Part shown: piece by piece, positions 166 to 10,733 of the stretch
Numbering within the stretch: the stretch's first letter is position 1
Layout of the letters: each line of letters begins with the position of its first letter
Source: Thermoanaerobaculia bacterium
Lineage (GTDB): Bacteria > Acidobacteriota > Thermoanaerobaculia > Multivoradales > UBA5704
Direction of reading: 5' to 3'
Assembly (NCBI GenBank): GCA_035644215.1
Contig: DASQPA010000064.1
Coordinates: 1-10,913, forward strand
Length of the DNA: 10,913 bases
Translations under genes and position numbers: made by a program
Notes under the pieces: model-generated
Told to the model about the DNA's origin: nothing
Databases searched by the model: none
What the model saw: the letters and a program-made list of their open reading frames with translations, nothing else

Positions 166-1233
166 TCAAGCCGAAGAGCTCTGGGGCACCAGAACGACCT
201 CGCACGGATTCTTCCGCCCGCGGATCAGGCGCGGGATACCTGCCTCCAGCTTGAATCCGTCCAAGTCGATTTGCGAACATCCAAGGTCGAAGGCCTTTTG
301 CAGGTCCGTGCCATAGCCGAGAGCGCGATAGAAACTCCGCGAGAAGCTGATCGCCGCTCTGTCGGTAATCCCCGCAGACATTCCGACCACCGCATCGGTG
401 TGCTCAGCTATAGCCTTTGCCTGCCCTTCGGACAGGCAGGCGTTGAGCACGACACAACGAAGGCGGTCTGAGAAGACGCGGAGCAAATTGGACAGGCTTT
501 CCGCCGACACCTCCCTGGCCACGCCCCCCTCGCTCTCCACAAGGATGGCGTTCGAACGGTTGCCGTGACCGCTGAAGTGGACGAGTCGCGGCCGGTGGGC
601 GAGAAGGGTCCGCTGAAGATCGTCGACACTTATGGCGAGGTCCGACGTGAGGAGGATTCGCTCCCGAAGGGGCGCCTCTCGGAGGACGGCCTCCACCTGG
701 TGAAGCTCGCGAGCAATCCCCAGCGCCGTGCTGCCGTCCGGATTGGCTCCCAGGAAGAGGAAGACCGCACCCGGAAAGAGACGCGCGTATACCAGGTCCT
801 GGATCTCCTGCAAGGAAACCTTCGTCCGGGCCTCCCCATGGATCTGTCGGAGAGCAGCAGCTGCAGCGGCGAGAGCTCGCTCGAGATCACCGGCTGCGAG
901 CTCCACTCTTGTCGAGTCCTCTCCGCTACGCCTTTCCCCGGGCAGCGCCTCAGCGAGATTCCGCAGGAGGGACCTCGCCGAGATCGCGCTGTTCCGGAGC
1001 AGGTGATCCACGGTTATCGTAACGAAGGAGAGAACTAGCACGAGATCCGGAATCAGCCCGAAACCATCGCCGAGCATCTCGTCACCTTCGAGGTGAGGGT
1101 CGGCGAAGTAGGCAGCGGCTAGCTCGTCGAAGTCCTCGATCTCGTCAGGAGCGAGCCGGGTGACGATAGGCTTCGCGAGGTCCCTGACGAGATCTTTCCC
1201 CGGTTCGCTGCGTAGAGCCTTGGCGATCCTCAT
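166..1233 (-). CDS. CHAT-domain (caspase-like Cys/His) peptidase with an unrecognised roughly 150-aa N-terminal helical domain; about 355 aa.
   Basis: Caspase-fold catalytic dyad motifs: PRLVHFSGHGN (His) and LRCVVLNACLSEG (Cys), preceded by a hydrophobic beta-strand AVFLFLGANPDG. This order and spacing is typical of CHAT/caspase-like domains. ATG at 1233 (4th codon of the track ORF, whose first codon is GTG at 1242) with Shine-Dalgarno AAGGTGA and a 5-nt spacer. Last gene of the operon. Confidence 0.75.
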   Translation of the reverse strand: MRIAKALRSEPGKDLVRDLAKPIVTRLAPDEIEDFDELAAAYFADPHLEGDEMLGDGFGLIPDLVLVLSFVTITVDHLLRNSAISARSLLRNLAEALPGERRSGEDSTRVELAAGDLERALAAAAAALRQIHGEARTKVSLQEIQDLVYARLFPGAVFLFLGANPDGSTALGIARELHQVEAVLREAPLRERILLTSDLAISVDDLQRTLLAHRPRLVHFSGHGNRSNAILVESEGGVAREVSAESLSNLLRVFSDRLRCVVLNACLSEGQAKAIAEHTDAVVGMSAGITDRAAISFSRSFYRALGYGTDLQKAFDLGCSQIDLDGFKLEAGIPRLIRGRKNPCEVVLVPQSSSA

Positions 1234-1263: not shown

Positions 1264-2508
1264 TCAAGCGGTCGTCCTGGCGTTGGCATTTCCCGCGGCC
1301 AGGACTCGGGTCTTCGTCGCCGCCGCCAACTGGGCGAAGGTAAAAACCTCGCCCTTGCCGAGCCCGACGGTGTCTCGGGGCTCGACCGGAGTGGCGACCT
1401 GGGGGGTCAGCCGGCGCCCGCTCACGAAGGTGCCGTTGGTCGAGCCCAGGTCGGCGAGCGAAAGCCGGCCGCCCGCGACCCACAGACGGGCGTGGTGGCG
1501 CGAGACGCCGTCGCTCTCGACGACGATGTCCCCTTCGCGGCCGAGGACGTAGGTGCCCTCCTCGGCCACGGAGGGGGGCGCGGCGAGGGCTCGTGGCGGC
1601 CGGCTCCCGGCCCCGACACCGGCACCGGCCCCGAGCGGCGCCTGGGCGGGGACCGGAAAACCCATCTGTCCCGCGTAGAAGAGCTGCATGAGGCTGTTGG
1701 TGCCGCCTGCCGCGCGCATCGCGACCTCCAGCGCCGCATCGTTCTGATAGAAGCCGAGGAGGAAATTGCGGGCCTCTTCGAGGGGGAGATCCCGCCCCTG
1801 CTCGCGCTTCACCTGCTCGACCATCTGGGCCGCCACCTGATTGAAGAGGAGACCTTTCTGGACCTGCGCCTCCCAGCCCGCGAGGCGCCCCTTGCCCTCC
1901 ATCTGCTCGCGCACTTCCGACTGGACGGCCTGCTTGACCTCTTTGTCGTCGGCGTCGACCTCGGTCAGCCAGACCTCCGGGACGGTGAGGCCCCAGCGGC
2001 GGGCGGTCTGCTCCAGGCCGCCCCGGATGCGCTCCCGCAGACCGCCCGCCGGCCCGCCGCCGAAAAGGACGCTGTCGATCCGCATCGACTGCACGGTCTC
2101 CCGGATCGAGTTCTGCGCCAGGCCGCGGAGGACGATGTTGGCTTCTTCTCCTCCCGCCTTTTGGCCATCCTCACCATCGCGCGAGAAGGGCTGGTAGGTG
2201 CCCGGCCCTTGCTCGAAGAGAGCGACGGCGTCGGTGACCGTGACGCGGAGAGTCGTCTTGAAGGAAATCCGCACCCGGTCGGCGGTGTAGTACTGTGCGG
2301 GCGGAATGTCCACCTGGCGTTCGCGGCGATAGATCACCACCAGCTCGGTGAGCCAAGGGAACAGCCATGTTAGCCCTTCCTGCCGCACGTCGTTCGTGCG
2401 CCGGCCGAGCACCAGCACGATTCCCACGGCGCCCACGGGGACGCGCTTCAAGCCGAGCCCCAGGATGATCAGGGCTCCCAGGGACAACACGACGACGGCA
2501 GCGAGCAT
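1264..2508 (-). CDS. SPFH/band-7 (stomatin/prohibitin/flotillin/HflKC-like) membrane protein with coiled-coil region and C-terminal FHA domain; about 414 aa.
   Basis: N-terminal TM helix MLAAVVVLSLGALIILGLGL, then an SPFH-like core: LKRVPVGAVGIVLVLGRRT...GLTWLFPWLTELVVIYRRERQVDIPPAQYYTADRVRISFKTTLRVTVTDAVALF...NIVLRGLAQNSIRETVQSMRIDSVLFGG. Charged helical region (EVKQAVQSEVREQMEGK...). C-terminal FHA domain: YVLGREGDIVVESDGVSRHHARLWV...LGSTNGTFVSGRRL. ATG at 2508 with GGGAGG (plus 2517-2522) and an 8-nt spacer. The 194-aa Arg/Pro-rich extension in track ORF 1264..3090 was rejected. Confidence 0.8.
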   Translation of the reverse strand: MLAAVVVLSLGALIILGLGLKRVPVGAVGIVLVLGRRTNDVRQEGLTWLFPWLTELVVIYRRERQVDIPPAQYYTADRVRISFKTTLRVTVTDAVALFEQGPGTYQPFSRDGEDGQKAGGEEANIVLRGLAQNSIRETVQSMRIDSVLFGGGPAGGLRERIRGGLEQTARRWGLTVPEVWLTEVDADDKEVKQAVQSEVREQMEGKGRLAGWEAQVQKGLLFNQVAAQMVEQVKREQGRDLPLEEARNFLLGFYQNDAALEVAMRAAGGTNSLMQLFYAGQMGFPVPAQAPLGAGAGVGAGSRPPRALAAPPSVAEEGTYVLGREGDIVVESDGVSRHHARLWVAGGRLSLADLGSTNGTFVSGRRLTPQVATPVEPRDTVGLGKGEVFTFAQLAAATKTRVLAAGNANARTTA

Positions 2509-2525: not shown

Positions 2526-3248
2526 CTAGGACGCGATGTAGAGCGGGCTGGACTGGGACTGGTTGGCGCGCCCCTGAGTATCCTCCAGCTGGGCCTCGGC
2601 CGAATAGGTACCGTTCGGCGCATTGGAGGGGAGCTCGAACTCCGCGGTCGCATCGACGATCCCACCGCCGTGGGGCACCTTGATCGTCGCGTCCTCGCCG
2701 GTCAGGTAGGAGCCCTGGTACTTGATGCCCCGGTAGCAATGGATCTCCAGGGTCTCCTTGGGATCGGGACCGATGACCAGATAGCGGATGTGGAGGGTCG
2801 CCTTCTGCCCCGGCTGGACGGTCTGCGGATCGAAGCGAATCTCCTGCACCCGGATCACGTAGCCGTCGCCCGGCTGGTAGTTGACGGCGCGCACCGCTTC
2901 GTCGCGGCTGTATTGAACGACGTCTTTGTGGCGCCCGATGAGATAGCCTGCAACCCCACCCACGGCGGCACCGGCCGCGACGCCGCGCGCTACGTTCTGG
3001 CCCAGCAACTTGGCCCGGAGCCCTCCGAGGACGCCGCCGACGATCGCTCCCGTCACGGCGCCCTTGCGGGAACGGTTGGCGGTCACCCACTCCTTTATGG
3101 ATTTCGGCTTTTGATCCTGCGAACCCGCCTGGGACGGGGCCGCAGAGTCGCCTCCGCCGGATGGCTCCTGGGACTGACAGTACGCCGGTGTCCCGGCCAG
3201 GGCTGCGAGCCAGATTGTCATGAGGGCCAATGCGGTGAATCGTTTCAT
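2526..3248 (-). CDS. Secreted glycine-zipper protein (Gly-zipper/17-kDa-surface-antigen-like segment) with a roughly 130-aa C-terminal domain of unknown function; about 240 aa.
   Basis: Starts MKRFTALALMTIWLAALAGTPAYCQ (signal peptide). Glycine zipper: GAVTGAIVGGVLGGLRAKLLGQNVARGVAAGAAVGGVAGYLIG. ATG at 3248 with GGGAGG (plus 3258-3263) and a 9-nt spacer. The upstream part of track ORF 2526..3398 is Arg-rich and was rejected. Confidence 0.7.
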   Translation of the reverse strand: MKRFTALALMTIWLAALAGTPAYCQSQEPSGGGDSAAPSQAGSQDQKPKSIKEWVTANRSRKGAVTGAIVGGVLGGLRAKLLGQNVARGVAAGAAVGGVAGYLIGRHKDVVQYSRDEAVRAVNYQPGDGYVIRVQEIRFDPQTVQPGQKATLHIRYLVIGPDPKETLEIHCYRGIKYQGSYLTGEDATIKVPHGGGIVDATAEFELPSNAPNGTYSAEAQLEDTQGRANQSQSSPLYIAS

Positions 3249-3270: not shown

Positions 3271-5037
3271 CTATTGCGGTGGCTTCTTGACCACCGAATC
3301 CTGGGTCTTGATCTTTGTCTTGTTGAAGAGATCCTTGAGGGCCTGATCGGCCTGTGCCGCGAGCTCCCGCGCCCGATCGGCGACCGTCTCGGGAACACCG
3401 TTCTCGCCGGCCAACTTCGTGGCCATCTGCCTGGCTTCAGGGTAGGACTTCTCGCCGATCAGGCCTTCGATCTGCTGCAGGCGCTGCTGCCACTTCTCCT
3501 TCTCGCTCTCCTTGCGAAGGGAGTCCGTTTTCAGCGAAATCTGTGTCGTGGTGATCTCCTCGTCGAGGGCATGCAGGCGGGCGACCTCTTCAATGAGATC
3601 GGCGCGGTAGGGAACGGCCGTCTCTTGCAGGCGGCTGAGCCGAGAACGGGCGGCGGTGAACTGCTGCGCCTCGATGTCGGAACGCACGATCTCTATCCCC
3701 TGCCGGAGGGTCTCGCGAATCCGGACGAGCTCAAGCTGATGGGTCTGCACGTCGACCATGGCGGGCGACGGACGGGAACGAGGCGGTTCCGAAGGTTGGC
3801 GCTCGGCCCGCGGCGCTTCGTGACGGTGCGAAGGTGCCACCGGCTCGGCCGGGGTGAGGACGGCGACCGGCGTCGACCGCAGATTCCCCTCCAGAGGGCG
3901 GGAGGACGGCGGCGCGGAGACGCTCTCCGGGCTCACCGAAGGCGACGGTCCCAGAGTCGCGGCGGCAGCCGGCGCCTCGGCCGGAGGCGGCGCGGCGGGC
4001 AGCGCGGCGAAGTGGGCGATACCGAAGGCCACGAAGGCAAGAAGGAGAGCGGCGCCAGCCGCCACCCACAGCCGCCGAGCGGCGGGCTTTCGGCCAGCTG
4101 CCCCGGGCAGCGGCGGCGGAGACGGACGAGGGAGTACCGGGGCCGGAGCGGGAGACGGGGCCGGCGGCGCCGGAGGGCGCTGGGGGACCGTCGGGGAGGT
4201 CGTGAGGTCGGCGCTCCCCGGGGTCATCGCGTCGCGGAGAGCCCGCAGCATCTCGCCGGCGCTCTGGAAGCGATCGTCCGGTCGCTTGGCGAGCGCCCGC
4301 AACACTACTCTCGCCACCGCCGGCGGCACTCCCGACTGCAGCGTGGAGAGATCGGGTGGAGTCGCCTCTACCTGGAACTTGCTGACCTCGAACACGCTTT
4401 CGGCGTCGAAGGGCGGCGCGCCGTTCAGCATCTCAAAAAAAACGATGGCGGCGCTGTAGATGTCGGTCCGGTGGTCCATCTCGCGCGGCCGGAGGATCTG
4501 TTCGGGAGACATGTAGACTGGCGTACCGATCGAGGACTGCGACGCGGTCAGACGCTTGTCGCCGACGAGGAGGGCGATGCCGAAGTCCATGAGCTTCACC
4601 CGCCCGTCGGGGGTGAGCAGGATGTTCGACGGCTTGACGTCCCTGTGGATGACCCCTTCGGAGTGGGCGTAGTCGAGAGCCGCGAGCACCTGGGAGAAGA
4701 TCCCCACCGCCTCGCCCAAGGCGAGACCCCGACCCGCGCGCTCGGCGAGCCAGCTGTCGCAGGAGCGCCCGGTGACCAGCTCCATGACGATGAAAAAGTC
4801 GTCCTCGTCCTCGATCAGGTCGAACACCGAGACGATGTTGGGATGCTGCAGGCGCGCCTGGGTCCGCGCCTCGGAGAAAAACCTTTCTTTGAACTCGGGC
4901 TGGCGGGTCAGCTCGGGCGCCAGCTCCTTGATCGCCACCTGGCGGCGCAGGTGCTCGTGGGTGCCGCGGTAGACGACCCCCATGCCGCCCCGGCCGACCA
5001 ACTCGTCGATGCGGTAGGGTCCGACGTGCGTCTTCAT
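3271..5037 (-). CDS. Hanks-type Ser/Thr protein kinase (RD kinase), Pro-rich juxtamembrane segment, single TM helix, and a roughly 240-aa extracytoplasmic helical/coiled-coil sensor domain; about 588 aa.
   Basis: GRGGMGVVYRG; VAIKEL; HRDVKPSNILL; DFGIA; GTPVYMSPEQ; DIYSAAIVFFEMLNGAPPF. Juxtamembrane sequence TTSPTVPQRPPAPPAPSPAPAPVLPRPSPPPLPG. TM helix LWVAAGAALLLAFVAFGIAHFAAL. The C-terminal domain is helical with a coiled-coil-like stretch (KTDSLRKESEKEKWQQRLQQIEGL). ATG at 5037 with AGGAG (plus 5045-5049) and a 7-nt spacer. The track ORF extension (3271..5229) is Arg-rich and was rejected. Confidence 0.9.
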   Translation of the reverse strand: MKTHVGPYRIDELVGRGGMGVVYRGTHEHLRRQVAIKELAPELTRQPEFKERFFSEARTQARLQHPNIVSVFDLIEDEDDFFIVMELVTGRSCDSWLAERAGRGLALGEAVGIFSQVLAALDYAHSEGVIHRDVKPSNILLTPDGRVKLMDFGIALLVGDKRLTASQSSIGTPVYMSPEQILRPREMDHRTDIYSAAIVFFEMLNGAPPFDAESVFEVSKFQVEATPPDLSTLQSGVPPAVARVVLRALAKRPDDRFQSAGEMLRALRDAMTPGSADLTTSPTVPQRPPAPPAPSPAPAPVLPRPSPPPLPGAAGRKPAARRLWVAAGAALLLAFVAFGIAHFAALPAAPPPAEAPAAAATLGPSPSVSPESVSAPPSSRPLEGNLRSTPVAVLTPAEPVAPSHRHEAPRAERQPSEPPRSRPSPAMVDVQTHQLELVRIRETLRQGIEIVRSDIEAQQFTAARSRLSRLQETAVPYRADLIEEVARLHALDEEITTTQISLKTDSLRKESEKEKWQQRLQQIEGLIGEKSYPEARQMATKLAGENGVPETVADRARELAAQADQALKDLFNKTKIKTQDSVVKKPPQ

Positions 5038-6296
5038 GGCTGTTCTCCTGGGGTTTTGTCCGCCGCCCCGCCGTCGGCGCCATGGGCGCGGCGGAAAGCC
5101 GCCTGGCGCGCGGCGACGGCGGCGAGGAGTGGCGCGCCGCTCGCGTAACGTCCACGACCGTCGAGCAGTGAGAAGTAGTGCTTGTGGCCGCCGCGCGCCG
5201 CGAGGACGAGCGTGTAAGGGCTCTCCCACAGGCCGCCGTCGACCGCGAGCGAGGTGAGCTCAGCCCAGGGAACCGACCACTCGGCGGCACCGTGGCCGGC
5301 GCGGTGGAGGGAGATTCCGTCCTTGGACAAGCGCAGCTGCGCCGTCGCCTCTCCGCCGAAGCCCACCCCGGCGGTGGCCGGACGCACCGTGAACACCGAA
5401 TCGGAGCGCTCGGCTGCCGATGCAGGCTCGGTTTTTCCTGCGGCGGTCGCTGGCGCAGACACGGTCCTCTTCCCGGCGGCCGTAACCGCGGGTGCGGCTT
5501 TTTCGGCAGCCGCAGGCGCGGTTTTCCCGGTGGCCGGTGGGGGTGCGCTCGCCAACTTGGCCACCGCCCGGTCCTTGAGGTCGCGGGTGCGCACCACCAG
5601 GTCCACCGGCAACCGCGGCTCGAGCAGCAGGCAGTCGGCCTGTTCGACCGCCGCCTCCAACTTGCCGTCGAGCACGAGGTCTGCGATCTGGAGCACCTCG
5701 CGGCTCCATTCCTGCAGCTCCGAAGCCGAGGGTGCCGGGGGCTGATCGCCCACCCGCAGCAGACCGGGACGCTCCGCCAGCCGCCGAAACCAAGCGAGAA
5801 GGGGCGCCGACGACCGCAGGGCTGCGGCGACGGCGAGCCGGGCGGCGCGGTGGTCGTCTCCCGCGGTGCCGGCAGGCAGGAGGAGCGGACCGAAGAGGAA
5901 GAGCTCCGGCGGGTCCTTCTTCGGCGGACCGTCGCCCAGGGCGATGAGCAGGGTGGCGGTCGCCACGGCGGACCGCCCGGAACGCGGCAACGTCACCTGC
6001 AGGTCCCACCAGAGGGGCACCACCTCCGGACCCGGCGCGCGGCACACCTCCGTGAACCGGGCAGCGGCCGGGAGGGCGGAGTGGTCGGCGCAGACCACCA
6101 CGCCGCCGTCCCAGGCCCGTTCGCGCAGGGCCTCCTCGATCTCGCTGCGGTCCTCCGCCGCCAGGGAACGGCCCGGAGCGTCCGCGGCGCGGAGGATCGT
6201 GCGGAGCGCGGGAGACTCCGCCTCGGCGCCCCAGCCGGCCGGCACCCCCGGCACACCCGCCAGTGCCGCCAGCGCGAGGACAGCCCACGCCATCAT
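5034..6296 (-). CDS. Secreted/periplasmic protein of unknown function, about 420 aa: signal peptide, roughly 240-aa N-domain, Ala/Pro/Lys-rich flexible linker, roughly 100-aa C-terminal beta-rich (possibly PH-like) domain.
   Basis: ATG pair at 6296/6293 begins MMAWAVLALAALAGVPGVPAGWGAEA, a Sec-type signal peptide. The upstream part of track ORF 5034..6485 is Arg/Cys-rich junk. Low-complexity linker: PPPATGKTAPAAAEKAAPAVTAAGKRTVSAPATAAGKTEPASAAE. Stop TGA (5034-5036) overlaps the ATG of the downstream kinase (ATGA). The exact start is uncertain because the Shine-Dalgarno sequence is weak (AGGTG directly abutting the ATG). Confidence 0.6.
   Translation of the reverse strand: MMAWAVLALAALAGVPGVPAGWGAEAESPALRTILRAADAPGRSLAAEDRSEIEEALRERAWDGGVVVCADHSALPAAARFTEVCRAPGPEVVPLWWDLQVTLPRSGRSAVATATLLIALGDGPPKKDPPELFLFGPLLLPAGTAGDDHRAARLAVAAALRSSAPLLAWFRRLAERPGLLRVGDQPPAPSASELQEWSREVLQIADLVLDGKLEAAVEQADCLLLEPRLPVDLVVRTRDLKDRAVAKLASAPPPATGKTAPAAAEKAAPAVTAAGKRTVSAPATAAGKTEPASAAERSDSVFTVRPATAGVGFGGEATAQLRLSKDGISLHRAGHGAAEWSVPWAELTSLAVDGGLWESPYTLVLAARGGHKHYFSLLDGRGRYASGAPLLAAVAARQAAFRRAHGADGGAADKTPGEQP
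5045..5049 (-). promoter_or_regulatory. Shine-Dalgarno AGGAG for kinase 1, inside the 3' end of the upstream secreted-protein gene.
   Basis: Plus ctcct at 5045-5049, 7 nt upstream of ATG 5037-5035. Consistent with coupled translation across the ATGA overlap. Confidence 0.6.
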
Positions 6297-6372
6297 CACC
6301 TGCCGGATCCGCCGGCCGCCGGAATTCGTCGTTTGCTCCACGTCCTGTCTCCTTCCTTCCGCTCTCCCGGCT

Positions 6373-7542
6373 CTACGGCCGGGGATAGGACAAATGCTTC
6401 TGCCGCAGCGTGGCGAGCACCGCCTCGCCGGCCGGGCCGCCGGCCTCGGCGAGCTGACAGCTGCGCCGCATCTCCTCCAGCTCATGGCGCGCCCAAAGTC
6501 CGTCCTCCGAGTCCTCGGCGAGGGTGGCCGCGAGATCGCGCGCCTCGAGATAGGTCGGATCGGTCAACGCGCAATGGTGATCGAGCACCTTCTCCTCGAA
6601 GGCCGACTGCAGTGCCTGAAACCGCGGCCGGAGCCCCGCTCCGCCCGCCTCCATCGGCACGCCGCCGCTCGGGGGCGGGGTCCCTGGCTCTACCGGACCG
6701 CCCACCACCAGCCAGCCGCCAAGGAGGGCGAGACCGCCGGCGGTGGCCGCGGCCAGCCACCACTGCGAGCGCAGGAACGGGATCCGGCGGGGCGTCGCGG
6801 TGCCGGCCGGCGGCAGGACGGCACCGCGACGGGCACGCCGATATGCGAGGCGCAGCGCTCCGGCATCGGTATAGCGTTCGCCGGGCAGGTGGCGTCTCGC
6901 CTTCTCCACCACCGCCATCAGAGCGGCCGCCGGCCGCGGCAGGGCGGCGAGGATTTCGGCGAGCATCTGGCCCAACGCGTAGACATCGGTCGCGCAGGCG
7001 AGCGCGCCGCCTTCGACCTGCTCGGGCGCTCCGTAGGGGAGCGAGTAGGCCCGGAGCCCAGGGCCCCCCGCCCGCCGGGCGATCCCGAAATCGATCAGCA
7101 CCGGTTGCGGGCCGGGGGCGCTCTCGGTGACGAGGACGTTGTCCGGCTTCAAGTCGAGGTGGAGGAAGGGCACCGCACGGTGGTGGAGATAGTCCACCGC
7201 GCCCAACATCTGCTCGAAGAGGTCGAGCACCCGCTCGGCGGCCGCGGCGTTCCTCTGCACCCAGGCGTCGAGCGGCACGCCGTCGACTTTCTCCATCAAC
7301 AGGCAGACCCGCTCCTGGGGGTCGAAGTGGCAGCGCCGGAAGGTCACGATGTTGGGATGCCGCAGCTGCCTCAGAAGCGCCGCCTCCTCGGCGAAGGCGG
7401 CGCGCACGGCGGGGAGAGCGCTCATCTCGGCGTTCAGGCGCTTGAGGATCAGCCTCTCGGGGAGAGCGCTCGCCGCGTCCTCGACCTCGAAGATCTCCGA
7501 AAAGCCGCCGCCCGAAAGGCGGGCGATGATCCGATAGTCCAT
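6373..7542 (-). CDS. Hanks-type Ser/Thr protein kinase, non-RD subclass (HLD instead of HRD), single TM helix and a short periplasmic helical domain; 389 aa.
   Basis: Gly-rich loop LSGGGFSEIFEV; beta3 Lys in LILKRL; catalytic loop HLDLKPDNVLV (Arg of HRD replaced by Leu); DFGIA; APE (YGAPEQ). TM helix WWLAAATAGGLALLGGWLVVGG, then a roughly 100-aa C-terminal domain. ATG at 7542 with GGAG 9 nt upstream. Confidence 0.85.
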   Translation of the reverse strand: MDYRIIARLSGGGFSEIFEVEDAASALPERLILKRLNAEMSALPAVRAAFAEEAALLRQLRHPNIVTFRRCHFDPQERVCLLMEKVDGVPLDAWVQRNAAAAERVLDLFEQMLGAVDYLHHRAVPFLHLDLKPDNVLVTESAPGPQPVLIDFGIARRAGGPGLRAYSLPYGAPEQVEGGALACATDVYALGQMLAEILAALPRPAAALMAVVEKARRHLPGERYTDAGALRLAYRRARRGAVLPPAGTATPRRIPFLRSQWWLAAATAGGLALLGGWLVVGGPVEPGTPPPSGGVPMEAGGAGLRPRFQALQSAFEEKVLDHHCALTDPTYLEARDLAATLAEDSEDGLWARHELEEMRRSCQLAEAGGPAGEAVLATLRQKHLSYPRP

Positions 7543-7562: not shown

Positions 7563-9023
7563 TCAGAGCACGCCATGGCTGTGCAGGAAGGAGCGGATGT
7601 CGTCAGCGCTCACCGCCTTGTTGCCGGCGTTGACCGGCTCCTGCATCAGGATTTCCTGGCCCTGCACGTTGATCGATTTCGCCTGCTGGAACTGCTGCGA
7701 GACGATGCCGATGAGCTCGCCTTTGTCGTTAATCACCGCGCCGCCGCTGCTGCCGTGGGTGACCGCGGCGTCGAAGACGACGTAGTTGGCGCCGGTGCTG
7801 CCGGTCAGCGGGTGGGTGACCGTGCCGGCGACGAAGGTGGGGGTCACCTCGGTGATGTTCGACAGGTCGGCGCCGAATCCCGACAGATTGCGGACCTGCG
7901 CCGGCCGCTCGCCCAAGTTGGCCGGATAGCTGATCACCGCGATGCGGTCGGTAACGTGGACGGCGGCATTCGAGGCGACGATCGGCACCTCGTGCGCCGC
8001 CGTCGTCTGGATCTGGACGAGCGCCAAGTCGAACTCGTCCGAGGAGGCGACCAGGGTGGCCTTCAGCGGCTGCTGGCCCGGGAATTGAACCTGCAGTTCG
8101 TCGTACTCGGCCTTGGCCGAGCTCTTGCGCTGAAGGACCTCCCAGTCGGCGAACTGCAGCTTCCAGGGCTCGACCACGTGCTTGGCGGTGAGCACCAGCC
8201 CGGGCCGGACCAGCACACCCGAACCGGTGACGCCGCCGAAGAGCAGAACTTCGCCCGAGGCGAGCGCCACCCCTTGGTTGTTGGAGGCGACGATCTTGGG
8301 CATCTTCACGCGGTAGAGGCAGCGGATGTGCACCGCCGCCGGGCTCACCTTCTTTTCGACGTCCCCCCAGATATTGCCGGCCTGTTGAGTGACCTTTGCG
8401 AGCCGGGTCTGTGTCTCGGAGGTCTCCGCCTTGTGCCGGACCTCCTGACGGTGGTTCCAAAAGAGGAAGGCGGTAAGTCCGCCGCCGGCTAAGACCAGCA
8501 CGGCGAGGAGGCCGGCGGTCAGCCAGACGCCGGTCGAGCGGCGGGTGCTGGCGATCTGGCCGGCGACGGCGTCGCGCTCCTCGCCGCGGGCGCGGTCGAT
8601 CTCGCGCAGGAGAGTCGCCCGGCCGACCGACTCCTTGCCGGCCGCGGGCGGCGGGGCACCGGCCGGAACCGCCGCCGCCGCCGGAGCGTCCGCCATCTCG
8701 AGCACCGCCTGCATCTCCGGACCCTGGCGGGCGAGGCGGATGCGCGAGCCGTCGGCCACCGCGATGCGCTGGAAGGGCGGACAGGGCGCGCCGTTGACGA
8801 AGGTGCCGTTCGAGCTGCGCTTGTCCTCGATGTAGAGGCGCCCCTTCTCCAGGCTCAATTCGGCGTGGGTGGTGCTCACGCTGTCGTCGGCCGTGTCGCT
8901 GAACTTGACGTCGTTCGTCTCGCCGCGGCCGAGTCGCAACACCTGGCCCTCCTTGATGGCGATGCGCTGGCTGCGGCCAGCGAGCGATCCGTTGAGATGC
9001 CTGAGGCTCAGAATCGTCGACAC
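7563..9023 (-). CDS. N-terminal FHA domain - single TM helix - C-terminal trypsin-like (S1/chymotrypsin-fold) serine protease, 486 aa.
   Basis: FHA domain at aa ~25-100: LRLGRGETNDV...STTHAEL...KRSSNGTFVNG. TM helix at aa ~166-189: VWLTAGLLAVLVLAGGGLTAFLFW. The protease domain has catalytic His (LTAKHVV), Asp (DEFDLALV) and a GDSGG-like Ser motif (THGSSGGAVI). GTG start at 9023 with Shine-Dalgarno AGGAGGAG (plus 9029-9036) and a 5-nt spacer. Confidence 0.85.
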   Translation of the reverse strand: MSTILSLRHLNGSLAGRSQRIAIKEGQVLRLGRGETNDVKFSDTADDSVSTTHAELSLEKGRLYIEDKRSSNGTFVNGAPCPPFQRIAVADGSRIRLARQGPEMQAVLEMADAPAAAAVPAGAPPPAAGKESVGRATLLREIDRARGEERDAVAGQIASTRRSTGVWLTAGLLAVLVLAGGGLTAFLFWNHRQEVRHKAETSETQTRLAKVTQQAGNIWGDVEKKVSPAAVHIRCLYRVKMPKIVASNNQGVALASGEVLLFGGVTGSGVLVRPGLVLTAKHVVEPWKLQFADWEVLQRKSSAKAEYDELQVQFPGQQPLKATLVASSDEFDLALVQIQTTAAHEVPIVASNAAVHVTDRIAVISYPANLGERPAQVRNLSGFGADLSNITEVTPTFVAGTVTHPLTGSTGANYVVFDAAVTHGSSGGAVINDKGELIGIVSQQFQQAKSINVQGQEILMQEPVNAGNKAVSADDIRSFLHSHGVL

Positions 9024-9028
9024 CGTCT

Positions 9029-9036
9029 CTCCTCCT
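9029..9036 (-). promoter_or_regulatory. Shine-Dalgarno AGGAGGAG for the FHA-protease gene, which starts at GTG.
   Basis: Plus ctcctcct at 9029-9036, 5 nt upstream of GTG 9023-9021. Confidence 0.7.
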
Positions 9037-9063: not shown

Positions 9064-9855
9064 TCATGGAAGGGAAGCGCCGGAAGAAGGCTCGACCGGC
9101 TCGATTTGGAGAAAGATCAGCTCCACTCCACCGCAGCGGATACGGTCGCGGTCGCGCAGAGCGACCGTGCCGTTGGTCGGTACCTCCTCGCCGTTGACGA
9201 AGGTGCCATTGGTCGACATCCGGTCGGCGAGGAAGAAGCTGGTGCCGCGGTGGAGGAGCAAGGCATGCTCGGCGGATACCTGGAGATCGGCGCCCAGACA
9301 GACGTCGCTCGCGCGGTCGCCGCCGATCGTGTTCTTGCCCTGGCGGACGGCGAAAACGGTCCCTCCTGGCCCGAGCGAGGGCGCCGCAAGAACGGCCACC
9401 AGGGGCCGGGAGGCCACCGCCGGGGAGGAAATCGGGGCCGCCGGCGCGGCGATCTCGACGGCCGGGGGCAACCCAGCGGGAGAGCTCGCCTTGCCGGCAT
9501 CCCCCAGGGCACCGGCGAGCATCGTCCGGCGCGGCGCCGCTGACCCCGCCAAGCCCGCCGGCACTGCCTCCAGGCGGGTGGCGCGGCTGCCGCTCGGCAC
9601 CGTCGGCTGGACCACGGTCGGGTTGTAGGAGGAGGGCGACGGTGGGCCGGCGGCGGCCCCTTCGAGCCGGGTGGAGCGCCCCGGACCGTCTCCGCCCGCC
9701 CGCAGGCGGTCACAGTACGGGCAACTGCGCCAGCTGGGATCGATCGGATGCCCAGCGGGGCAGCGCAGGGTCGCCGCCTGCAAGGGAGCGCCGCACATGA
9801 GGCAGGCCGGCTCCGCGTCGGGATTCAGGGTACGACAGCTGGCGCATTCGATCAC
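9064..9855 (-). CDS. Double zinc-ribbon (4x Cys pairs) + Pro/Ala-rich linker + C-terminal FHA domain protein, 263 aa.
   Basis: The N-terminus has two CxxC...CxxC units (CASC...CLMCG; CPAGH...CPYCD). The C-terminus is a canonical FHA domain: GGDRASDVCL...SAEHALLL...MSTNGTFVNGEEV...RDRDRIRCGG. The start is GTG at 9855, preceded by a strong Shine-Dalgarno AAGGAG (plus 9863-9868) with a 7-nt spacer. The GTGA overlap with the PP2C stop implies translational coupling. Confidence 0.8.
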   Translation of the reverse strand: MIECASCRTLNPDAEPACLMCGAPLQAATLRCPAGHPIDPSWRSCPYCDRLRAGGDGPGRSTRLEGAAAGPPSPSSYNPTVVQPTVPSGSRATRLEAVPAGLAGSAAPRRTMLAGALGDAGKASSPAGLPPAVEIAAPAAPISSPAVASRPLVAVLAAPSLGPGGTVFAVRQGKNTIGGDRASDVCLGADLQVSAEHALLLHRGTSFFLADRMSTNGTFVNGEEVPTNGTVALRDRDRIRCGGVELIFLQIEPVEPSSGASLP

Positions 9856-10733
9856 AGGGTCTCTCCTTGGAAGGTCTCGCCGCCGCCCGCCGGGAATGCC
9901 TCGACCCGGGTGATGCGCCGGCCTCGTCCCGAGCTCTCGGCGCAGGTCACCCGCAGGTAGCCGACCGTGATGTTGTCCGCGCTGTGCGCCGCCAAGGCGG
10001 CGTCGAGAAGCCGTTGGCAGATCTCGGCTGTGGACCCGGAACTCGCCGCGAGGACGACGATCTGGGCGATCTCGTCATCGGGCAGGGCGCCGTGCAGGCC
10101 GTCCGACGAGAGCAGGATGAGGTCGCCGGAGTTGAGCGCAAGCGGCACTTGCACCTCGGGCTCCAGAGGTCCGGACTGGCCGATGGCACGCTGGATCACG
10201 TTGCTGTCGGGGTGGCCGAACGCCTCCTCTTCGGCGAGCAGCCCGTCGCGCACCATCTGGCCGACCAACGAATGGTCGGAGGTCAAGCGGGTGAACGCCC
10301 GCCCACGCAGGAGATAGGCGCGGCTGTCGCCCGCATGGGCCAGGTGGAGCATCGGCTGGCCGGGCTCGCCGGCGGCGACCGCCATCACCGCGGTGGCTCC
10401 CATACCCTCGGCGCCGCCGCGTGCGGCCGTGGCGCGCACCGCCTCCTGGGAGGCGGCGAAGGCCTGCCGAAGCCGGTCCTCCCAGGCCAGACTGTCGCCT
10501 CCCGGCCGCTGCAGCACCTCGACGGCCACCCGCAAGACGATCTCCGCCGCCTCGCGGCCCGCCGCGTGACCGCCCATTCCATCGACAACGAGGAGCACCC
10601 CCTCTCCCGCCTCGCCCTGCCAGGCGGCCGCCGCGTCCTGGTTCTCCTCCCGCACCGGACCGCAGATTGAGACCACGTCCATCTCGATTCGATCCGCCGG
10701 GCGGCCGGTCTGCGGCATGAGCGGTGGGTTCAT
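9852..10733 (-). CDS. PP2C-family Ser/Thr protein phosphatase, about 293 aa. I take ATG at 10733; ATG at 10718 or 10682 (MDVVSICGPVREENQD, the canonical PP2C N-terminus) are alternatives.
   Basis: Minus-strand translation carries classic PP2C metal-binding motifs: LLVVDGMGGHAAG, HAGDSRAYLL, LLSSDGLHG, DNITVGYL. The N-terminal R-x-x-NQD motif is also present. GGGAG lies 6 nt upstream of ATG 10733. The stop TGA (9852-9854) overlaps the GTG start of the next gene. The track ORF 9852..10838 starts at TTG with a Pro/Arg-rich, non-protein-like extension, so I trimmed it to the Shine-Dalgarno-preceded ATG. Confidence 0.85.
   Translation of the reverse strand: MNPPLMPQTGRPADRIEMDVVSICGPVREENQDAAAAWQGEAGEGVLLVVDGMGGHAAGREAAEIVLRVAVEVLQRPGGDSLAWEDRLRQAFAASQEAVRATAARGGAEGMGATAVMAVAAGEPGQPMLHLAHAGDSRAYLLRGRAFTRLTSDHSLVGQMVRDGLLAEEEAFGHPDSNVIQRAIGQSGPLEPEVQVPLALNSGDLILLSSDGLHGALPDDEIAQIVVLAASSGSTAEICQRLLDAALAAHSADNITVGYLRVTCAESSGRGRRITRVEAFPAGGGETFQGETL
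9863..9868 (-). promoter_or_regulatory. Shine-Dalgarno AAGGAG for the zinc-ribbon-FHA gene, which starts at GTG, embedded in the 3' end of the PP2C gene.
   Basis: Plus ctcctt at 9863-9868, 7 nt upstream of GTG 9855-9853. Confidence 0.65.

Follow-up and report, generated by a model that had tools for sequence, protein, structure and literature searches.

A PDZ-less HtrA-type protease domain joined across a predicted membrane helix to an FHA domain in a Ser/Thr kinase and phosphatase operon of Acidobacteriota

In this work, we analyzed a stretch of 10,913 nucleotides (nt) from a Thermoanaerobaculia bacterium (contig DASQPA010000064.1 of assembly GCA_035644215.1), hereafter the window, with a focus on one of its genes, whose product combines an N-terminal FHA domain, a single transmembrane (TM) helix and a trypsin-like (S1) protease domain (FHA-TM-S1). 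With moderate confidence, we propose that this protein is a membrane-anchored, PDZ-less protease of the HtrA family, for which docking of the FHA domain on kinase-made phosphothreonine (pThr) would serve as the input and proteolysis in the periplasm as the output. The features of the gene and of its product, numbered in amino acids (aa) and supported in part by an AlphaFold2 (AF2) model, are the following:

7563..9023, minus strand: coding sequence of the FHA-TM-S1 protein, 486 aa plus stop (list of open reading frames, Pfam, homologue search)
9029..9036, minus strand: Shine-Dalgarno sequence AGGAGGAG, the reverse complement of 9029-9036, 5 nt 5′ of the GTG (sequence)
8694..9023, minus strand: FHA domain, aa 1-110, placed in the cytoplasm (Pfam, alignment, AF2)
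8529..8693, minus strand: predicted disordered cytoplasmic linker, aa 111-165 (alignment; AF2, disorder at aa 112-162)
8574-8636, minus strand: juxtamembrane motif K130-D150, KESVGRATLLREIDRARGEERD, inside the linker (alignment; shared with TIR-fused paralogues)
8457..8528, minus strand: single predicted TM helix, aa 166-189 (hydropathy, AF2)
8370..8456, minus strand: predicted periplasmic helical stalk, aa 190-218, variable in length and sequence (alignment, AF2)
7566..8369, minus strand: predicted PDZ-less protease domain of HtrA type (S1C-like), aa 219-486 (Pfam, PDB profile, Foldseek)

The G+C content of the window is 69% and both of its strands carry long open reading frames (ORFs). A homologue search that covered 5.8 billion proteins returned 113 homologues of FHA-TM-S1 with the same Pfam architecture and 37-91% identity across approximately the full length; thus, the ORF is not a product of chance. 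The GTG start codon was read in the DNA at 9021-9023 and is supported by the homologues, as they start at the same N-terminal column of the alignment. A preliminary description of the gene, made from the sequence alone, had given its coordinates correctly without naming the strand, which we found to be the minus strand, and the GTG start and strong Shine-Dalgarno sequence that it reported are both present. The motifs it quoted were also located in the protein: GR at residues 32-33, S..HA at 50-54, SSNGTFVNG at 70-78, LTAKHVV at 278, DLALV at 332 and GSSGGAV at 424. An identical protein (P0001) was found in public metagenomes, and all taxonomically named homologues belong to Acidobacteriota, mostly to Thermoanaerobaculia. 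We rejected a plus-strand reading, since neither the 305-aa ORF at 7575..8492 (+) inside the protease gene nor any other long antisense ORF is backed by homologues or domains, and ORFs of this kind are to be expected at this G+C content.

Pfam recognized an FHA domain at aa 30-97 (E=5.9e-16) and a Trypsin_2 domain at aa 267-440 (E=1.2e-21), and a single hydrophobic segment lies between them, in agreement with the order FHA, one TM helix and S1 protease that had been suggested for the protein. The structure was modeled with AF2 as a monomer from 24 homologues (mean pLDDT 77). The FHA region forms a beta-sandwich of 10 strands (pLDDT about 90) with the Gly-Arg, Ser-x-x-His and Asn-Gly motifs all present, and an alignment of 24 diverse members showed that the pThr-contact residues G32, R33, S50, H53, N72, G73 and T74 are invariant. 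The domain is therefore predicted to be of the canonical phosphothreonine-binding type. Between the FHA domain and the membrane, the juxtamembrane motif at aa 130-150 (KESVGRATLLREIDRARQEERD) is as conserved in this alignment as the catalytic regions. Its conserved T137 was considered as a ligand of the FHA domain and rejected: the residue is also kept in paralogues that carry a TIR domain in place of FHA, and an Arg stands at +3, so that a structural role is more likely.

Only one segment of the protein, aa 163-190, reaches the hydrophobicity of a TM helix (Kyte-Doolittle maximum 2.19). A single strong hydrophobic segment near residue 169 was detected in all 106 full-length cluster representatives, with a minimum Kyte-Doolittle value of 1.67. 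In the AF2 model, one continuous helix (aa 161-229) spans the TM segment and the stalk. We infer that the FHA domain faces the cytoplasm and the protease domain the periplasm, because there is no N-terminal signal peptide, the TM segment is single, the 165-residue N-terminal domain is charged and the C-terminal domain is of HtrA type. The positive-inside rule is weakly informative here, with a family mean of 3.4 Lys and Arg residues on the N-terminal side vs. 2.6 on the C-terminal side.

The C-terminal domain is predicted to be a protease of HtrA type. A profile of the family matched PDB structures of DegQ, DegS, DegP and HtrA, with E-values down to 9e-14 and with the triad aligned with the catalytic His, Asp and Ser. 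The AF2 model, in which a two-barrel protease domain ends with a C-terminal helix, gave TM-scores of 0.72-0.80 in Foldseek comparisons with the protease domains of HtrA1 and DegS. The codons of H282 (8178-8180), D332 (8028-8030) and S426 (7746-7748) were read in the DNA and, together with the DegQ alignment, substantiate the earlier claim of an intact His/Asp/Ser triad. D332 is invariant among the 24 aligned members, while H282 and S426 are found in at least 90% of them. Of 106 full-length homologues, 102 (96%) retain the whole triad, the exceptions being P0076, in which Asp replaces Ser, P0081 and P0085, both with Gln for His, and P0109, which has lost the His and carries Cys in place of Ser. 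Around the catalytic Ser, the consensus of the family reads PGNSGGAV, the HtrA signature, and the window protein has HGSSGG at this site; in our reading, the segment VEKxVSPAVVHI at the beginning of the domain resembles the N-terminus of HtrA. No PDZ domain was detected by Pfam or NCBIfam, and the 60 residues that come after the catalytic Ser, up to the end of the protein, form the last strands of the barrel and the C-terminal helix. The NCBIfam equivalog cut-offs were not reached either, with 47 bits for DegS (the best score) vs. the 408-423 required and 28.6 vs. 720 for DegP. As the PDZ domain is absent and the equivalog scores are far below their cut-offs, we concluded that the protein is a predicted HtrA-type protease and not an orthologue of DegS or DegP. 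Orthology with DegQ, MarP, MamE and MamO was rejected likewise, as all of these matches fell far under the NCBIfam cut-offs.

The genes around FHA-TM-S1 connect it with Ser/Thr phosphorylation. The window carries an operon of nine co-directional minus-strand genes separated by gaps of -4 to 40 nt, of which the following lie around FHA-TM-S1:

9852..10733, minus strand: Ser/Thr phosphatase of PP2C type, at the head of the conserved core (Pfam, NCBIfam)
9064..9855, minus strand: protein with a double zinc ribbon and an FHA domain (ZnFHA), always directly 5′ of the FHA-TM-S1 gene (Pfam, synteny)
6373..7542, minus strand: STK_A, a non-RD Hanks kinase with a TM helix at aa 262-281 and a predicted periplasmic tail of about 108 aa with two Cys (Pfam)
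5034..6341, minus strand: exported protein of 435 aa, fast-evolving and of no known family (Pfam, AF2)
3271..5037, minus strand: STK_B, a PknB-like Hanks kinase with a TM helix, a Pro-rich linker and a helical ectodomain (Pfam, NCBIfam)

Related loci were collected from species-representative genomes and metagenome contigs, in which homologues of the nine proteins were located by phmmer. All of these loci are from Acidobacteriota and most are labeled Thermoanaerobaculia. The order PP2C, ZnFHA and FHA-TM-S1 is kept wherever the upstream flank could be read, i.e., in L001-L011 (ten distinct loci, as L002 and L008 are the same contig), L087 and L088; locus L012 begins within the ZnFHA gene. A Hanks kinase occurs within a few kb of the FHA-TM-S1 gene in each of the flank-readable related loci, counted as 11 distinct loci. 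STK_A, the exported protein of no known family and STK_B come after FHA-TM-S1 in L001, L003, L004, L006 and L007, STK_B follows it directly in L009, L010 and L012, and STK_B lies divergently upstream in L002, L005 and L088. Of the two kinases, STK_B has the more consistent linkage with the protease gene. In the window, STK_A begins 20 nt downstream of the FHA-TM-S1 gene on the same strand, and its TM helix bears out the statement that the protease gene sits immediately upstream of a membrane kinase. In STK_A, HLDLKPDN replaces the HRD motif, the catalytic Lys, DFG and APE are retained, and about 250 aa precede the TM helix.

The same association was found far outside this group of loci. In an Azospirillaceae metagenome-assembled genome (MAG), a remote FHA-TM-S1 gene is followed by PP2C and kinase genes, and in another MAG such a gene sits between a divergent kinase and a PP2C gene. 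Thus, a PP2C and two Hanks kinases accompany the FHA protein in the window, and the linkage recurs in the related loci and in two distant lineages. The recurrence of FHA-TM-S1 together with PP2C and a Hanks kinase across phyla is the strongest evidence that we have, and on the basis of this gene neighborhood a functional link of the protease to Ser/Thr phosphorylation, which the preliminary description had also claimed, is well supported.

We therefore considered how such a link might operate. It is known that FHA proteins dock on phosphorylated juxtamembrane or activation-loop Thr residues of bacterial Hanks kinases, as for FhaA and FipA with PknB and PknA, Fha1 with PpkA, and Rv1747 with PknF, and that HtrA proteases act as trimers. 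In the scheme that we propose, the membrane kinases (STK_B and, where present, STK_A) would autophosphorylate or would phosphorylate the disordered linker of the protease. The FHA domain would then dock on the resulting pThr, either in the juxtamembrane or activation segments of the kinases or in the protease's own linker. Such docking may tether or cluster the protease beside the kinase complex, and clustering could itself switch the protease on, since HtrA proteases work as trimers. The periplasmic domain would cleave envelope or ectodomain targets near the kinases, so that the signal would run from inside to outside, and PP2C would reverse the state. The scheme agrees in outline with the preliminary description, according to which kinase activity can recruit, position or gate the protease; the data show the identities of the domains, the conservation of functional residues and the gene linkage, and the topology, the docking, the gating and direction, the activation by clustering and the substrates are predictions. 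A candidate docking site of the pTxxD/E-like type, T-[VT]-[LI]-[DE], was found between the kinase domain and the TM helix of STK_B in five to six of 10 orthologues (L001, L002, L004, L007, L010). The co-encoded secreted proteins (2526..3248 and 5034..6341, the latter given there as 5034..6296) had been put forward as substrates; this is a conjecture, and the minimal conserved gene set does without both of them.

Several observations weigh against the proposed scheme. Neither the STK_B of the window nor that of its closest relative, L003, has the candidate docking motif. The four FHA-fused members with a broken triad persist in complete operons. The stalk varies in length and sequence across the 24-member alignment, which speaks against the idea that conformational changes are relayed rigidly through the membrane; for the same reason a coiled-coil relay through the stalk was found to be unsupported. 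Finally, there are TIR-fused paralogues that are pseudoproteases, in which the periplasmic domain possibly serves as a sensor or an anchor; these are considered below.

Among known systems, DegS and HtrA are the nearest enzymatic relatives. With DegS and other HtrA proteases (MEROPS S1C), the window protein shares the chymotrypsin-fold protease domain with its triad and, in the family consensus, the GNSGG-type motif; with DegS it also shares an N-terminal membrane anchor followed by a catalytic domain that is, in our protein, predicted to be periplasmic. DegS and DegP contain a regulatory PDZ domain, whereas FHA-TM-S1 has none and carries instead the 165-residue cytoplasmic extension with FHA. 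The likeness to anti-sigma factor and site-1-protease systems that had been suggested holds at the level of the fold, where both profile and structure point to DegS. It does not hold for the pathway: none of the nine operon genes encodes an anti-sigma factor, an ECF sigma factor or a site-2 protease, and the partners of DegS (RseA, RseP and sigma-E) are not encoded near the window gene. The ECF sigma/zf-HC2 pair of L001, about 4 kb distant and on the opposite strand, is not conserved in the other loci.

On the side of signaling, the nearest relatives are the FHA proteins FhaA and FhaB/FipA of Mycobacterium tuberculosis (PstP-PknA-PknB), Fha1/TagH of Pseudomonas aeruginosa (PpkA-PppA) and Rv1747 (PknF), which share with the window protein a canonical FHA domain encoded beside a PP2C and membrane Hanks kinases. 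FipA, TagH and Rv1747 are, like it, membrane-tethered. To our knowledge, neither FipA/FhaB, nor TagH/Fha1, nor Rv1747 is a protease. The best NCBIfam match of the FHA domain was FhaB_Rv0019c, under its cut-off. The window module differs from those of FipA, TagH and Rv1747 in that its FHA domain is connected, via the membrane segment, with a protease and in that the operon has no RodA/PbpA, type VI secretion system (T6SS) or ABC-transporter genes. Membership of the T6SS TagH or the gliding-motility GltG group was rejected, because the similarity is confined to the FHA level (TagH 31.6 vs. a cut-off of 120 bits); no T6SS genes were found in the window, where a TagQ match arose only through a glycine zipper.

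In the Esr threat-sensing pathway of Actinomycetales (PMC13622651), a kinase/phosphatase pair targets divergent FHA-domain outputs, among them zinc-finger-FHA proteins, to which the zinc-ribbon-FHA protein of the window may be compared. Esr and the conflict systems of PMC7159879 differ by their MoxR, vWA and beta-propeller sensor genes, which are not found in the window, and the sections of these two papers considered here do not mention a protease-fused FHA.

Next to these comparisons stands the distribution of the architecture itself. We scanned 1.84 billion cluster representatives exhaustively with HMMER, and only 22 of them scored at E<1e-30; thus, the family in the strict sense is narrow. 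FHA and S1 occur together in 73 of the best 150 representatives, and in 65 of these 73 the N-terminus carries one to three FHA domains, which a single hydrophobic segment separates from S1. The order FHA-TM-Trypsin_2 is therefore present in at least 65 clusters at 50% identity, and Pfam confirmed the architecture in 20 of 20 sampled representatives. Five representatives (P0166, P0212, P0221, P0231 and P0257) have the reverse order, S1 and then a C-terminal FHA, with no hydrophobic segment in between, and such fusions presumably occupy one side of the membrane. The trans-membrane split is thus common and not universal. A 2008 survey of prokaryotic serine proteases lists an FHA-FHA-Tryp protein for Bacteroides thetaiotaomicron, NP_811686.1 (Tripathi and Sowdhamini, PMC2605481); the FHA and trypsin combinations catalogued there have the same Pfam pair in the same order and are listed only, whereas the family of the window is a narrow Acidobacteriota clade with its own juxtamembrane motif and operon. 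Public annotations read 'trypsin-like peptidase domain-containing protein' or 'S1-C subfamily serine protease'. A full-text literature search, which did not cover all journals, turned up no functional work on FHA-TM-trypsin proteins, the sole mention being the 2008 architecture list. The architecture is thus catalogued and widespread yet uncharacterized, and it combines two known kinds of protein, an HtrA protease and an FHA adaptor.

The direction of signaling has to be weighed against a group of paralogues in which the cytoplasmic domain has been exchanged. In three of them, FHA is replaced by a TIR domain, after which come the same juxtamembrane motif, a TM helix and an S1-like domain:

L006:5612-8260: P0121, TIR-TM-S1-like, directly 5′ of the PP2C gene of a complete FHA system
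L085:8001-9632: P0122, TIR-TM-S1-like, a solitary gene inside a conjugative element with a type IV secretion system (T4SS)
L086:369-1960: P0114, TIR-TM-S1-like, split by a frameshift

The triads of these proteins are broken in different ways, with Asp to Gly and Ser to Gly in P0121, Ser to Ile in P0122 and His to Arg in P0114. Loss of the triad in three of three TIR forms vs. four of 106 FHA forms gave p=1.7e-4 in a Fisher test, a value uncorrected for phylogeny, with the three losses hitting different residues. P0122 has a TIR domain with 70-78% identity to those found in fusions with NB-ARC/TPR, WD40, papain-like (C1-peptidase) and SIR2 modules; we take a TIR domain shuffled in this way to be typical of NLR-like immune proteins.

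The membrane kinase STK_A shows a corresponding exchange. In L002 (11593-12537) and L088 (8552-9457), a TIR protein with a TM helix holds the position of STK_A. The tail of the L002 protein is homologous to the periplasmic tail of STK_A (window 6376-6699, minus strand; pairwise E=4e-6), with both Cys aligned, while the L088 protein was identified by its position, size and a TIR_2 hit only. Since there are TIR fusions of both modules, the periplasmic modules are the constant ones, and the cytoplasmic ones, FHA and kinase, are exchanged with TIR. In L088, where the FHA-TM-S1 protein is a Ser-to-Asp pseudoprotease, the operon goes on with a 1360-aa protein (10702-14784; faint GAF matches) and a second TIR protein (14784-15491).

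These data bear most directly on an alternative in which the signal runs from outside to inside. The periplasmic domain would bind a ligand, such as an unfolded protein, a peptide or a foreign factor, and the oligomeric state of FHA-TM-S1 would change as a result; FHA would be the output, sequestering or scaffolding a phosphorylated kinase or ZnFHA, and proteolysis would be secondary. In favor of it, the TM-S1 module and the juxtamembrane motif stay constant while FHA and TIR are swapped. All TIR-fused forms are pseudoproteases and four FHA-fused pseudoproteases are kept in full operons; the periplasmic domain can thus also work without catalysis. The solitary P0122 gene in a conjugative element implies that the module needs no kinase, and in the NB-ARC/TPR and WD40-array relatives of its TIR domain the variable C-terminal part is the sensor. 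Against it, 96% of the FHA-fused members keep the full triad at about 40-90% sequence divergence, which argues that catalysis is selected, and FHA has no enzymatic output of its own. On balance, we consider an outside-in sensor to be rather unlikely. Each protein of the module family has a single catalytic domain: the triad is nearly always kept with a reader (FHA) and lost with an enzyme (TIR), which suggests that proteolysis is the output of the FHA forms, as the proposed docking scheme has it.

The two sets of forms may also be brought together, and we put forward this extension only as a speculation of low probability. The TM helix, the HtrA-like module and the juxtamembrane motif would then be a reusable trans-envelope cassette, which in its FHA form would be a periplasmic protease controlled by pThr and in its TIR form a catalytically dead sensor that drives a cytoplasmic NAD-consuming effector, with the kinase tail undergoing the same swap. 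Such proteins could represent a new class of envelope-surveillance receptors in Acidobacteriota, with a possible connection to phospho-signaling or to TIR immunity alike.

The remaining genes of the operon are of interest for its biological role. Downstream of STK_B, three accessory genes complete the nine:

2526..3248, minus strand: exported glycine-zipper protein, which recurs in L003 and L087 (Pfam, synteny)
1264..2508, minus strand: protein with a TM helix, an SPFH/Band-7 domain and, C-terminally, an FHA domain, which recurs in L003 and L087 (Pfam, synteny)
166..1233, minus strand: CHAT caspase-like protease with His/Cys dyad motifs (HFSGHG, NAC) (Pfam, motifs)

FHA-TM-S1 is thereby one of three FHA reader proteins in the operon. 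No loci other than L003 and L087, the closest relatives, have the glycine-zipper and SPFH-FHA genes again, and CHAT recurs in L087, there upstream of PP2C. Two start/stop overlaps, GTGA at 9852-9855 (PP2C and ZnFHA) and ATGA at 5034-5037 (the 5034..6341 protein and STK_B), suggest translational coupling. A scan of the window for terminators and promoters gave sites of neither kind more often than expected by chance. The 5034..6341 protein matched no Pfam family even at E<=5, and only three homologues were found via a word index; its gene usually comes after STK_A or the TIR counterpart of STK_A. AF2 modeled this protein poorly (pLDDT 46), the exception being a C-terminal domain at aa 315-420 (pLDDT 70-81) with seven strands and a helix. 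Nearly all of the best 50 fold matches of this domain are PH, PTB or FERM-F3 domains or proteins that contain them, with weak scores (E 2.5e-3 or worse), so a PH-like domain is possible on the basis of the model.

A further alternative concerns the biological role and is compatible with either direction of signaling. The operon could be a conflict or programmed-death module controlled by phosphorylation, in which the protease, CHAT, the glycine-zipper protein and, in the relatives, TIR would be effectors released upon an envelope attack (by a phage, a predator or a conjugative element) sensed by the kinases. The window operon does contain a CHAT gene with a predicted active dyad next to the glycine-zipper and SPFH-FHA genes, with recurrences in L003 and L087; L002 and L088 have TIR proteins in place of STK_A or in addition; and one of the TIR-TM-pseudo-S1 paralogues resides on a T4SS element and has a TIR domain of the type shuffled among NLR-like proteins. 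Trypsin-like, caspase-like, TIR and FHA domains are named among the effector or signaling domains of prokaryotic conflict systems (PMC7159879, PMC8195603), and the Esr pathway (PMC13622651) provides a kinase/phosphatase/FHA precedent for threat sensing in Actinomycetales.

Yet, the window does not have the NTPase core of such systems. By Pfam, it contains no NTPase or vWA gene, and the STAND, MoxR-vWA or GTPase core of the NTPase-centered conflict system (Kaur et al. 2020) is thus missing, while the window does have CHAT and its relatives TIR. The PADLOC matches (kinase, trypsin and CHAT) were all generic and none pointed to a defined system, so that assignment to a known anti-phage system was rejected. 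Moreover, L001, L004-L007, L009 and L010 have no CHAT, TIR, glycine-zipper or SPFH genes beside the core, and the core is not visibly on a mobile element. We therefore regard a role in conflict or cell death as doubtful. Least probable of all, and in our view improbable, is an ordinary DegS/DegP-like quality-control protease of the envelope with FHA as a mere cytoplasmic anchor or localizer and no phosphorylation control: the HtrA-type fold and motifs and the generic 'S1-C' annotation agree with it, and the invariant pThr-binding residues, the strict synteny that joins the gene to PP2C, another FHA protein and kinases across distant lineages, the absence of PDZ and the 47 vs. 408 bits at the DegS cut-off speak against it.

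HtrA/DegS periplasmic proteases are regulated from the periplasmic side via PDZ domains, and bacterial Hanks-kinase signaling controls cytoplasmic targets and membrane machines via FHA adaptors. A protease with a cytoplasmic pThr reader as its sole recognizable regulatory domain would let cytoplasmic phosphorylation control extracytoplasmic proteolysis, or the reverse. As the architecture spans from Acidobacteriota to Azospirillaceae and is tied to PP2C and kinases in the loci examined, a result obtained for one carrier would annotate the whole class. The swaps of FHA with TIR and of the kinase with TIR constitute a natural experiment on the direction of signaling, and they may provide a bridge between envelope signaling and TIR-based immunity.

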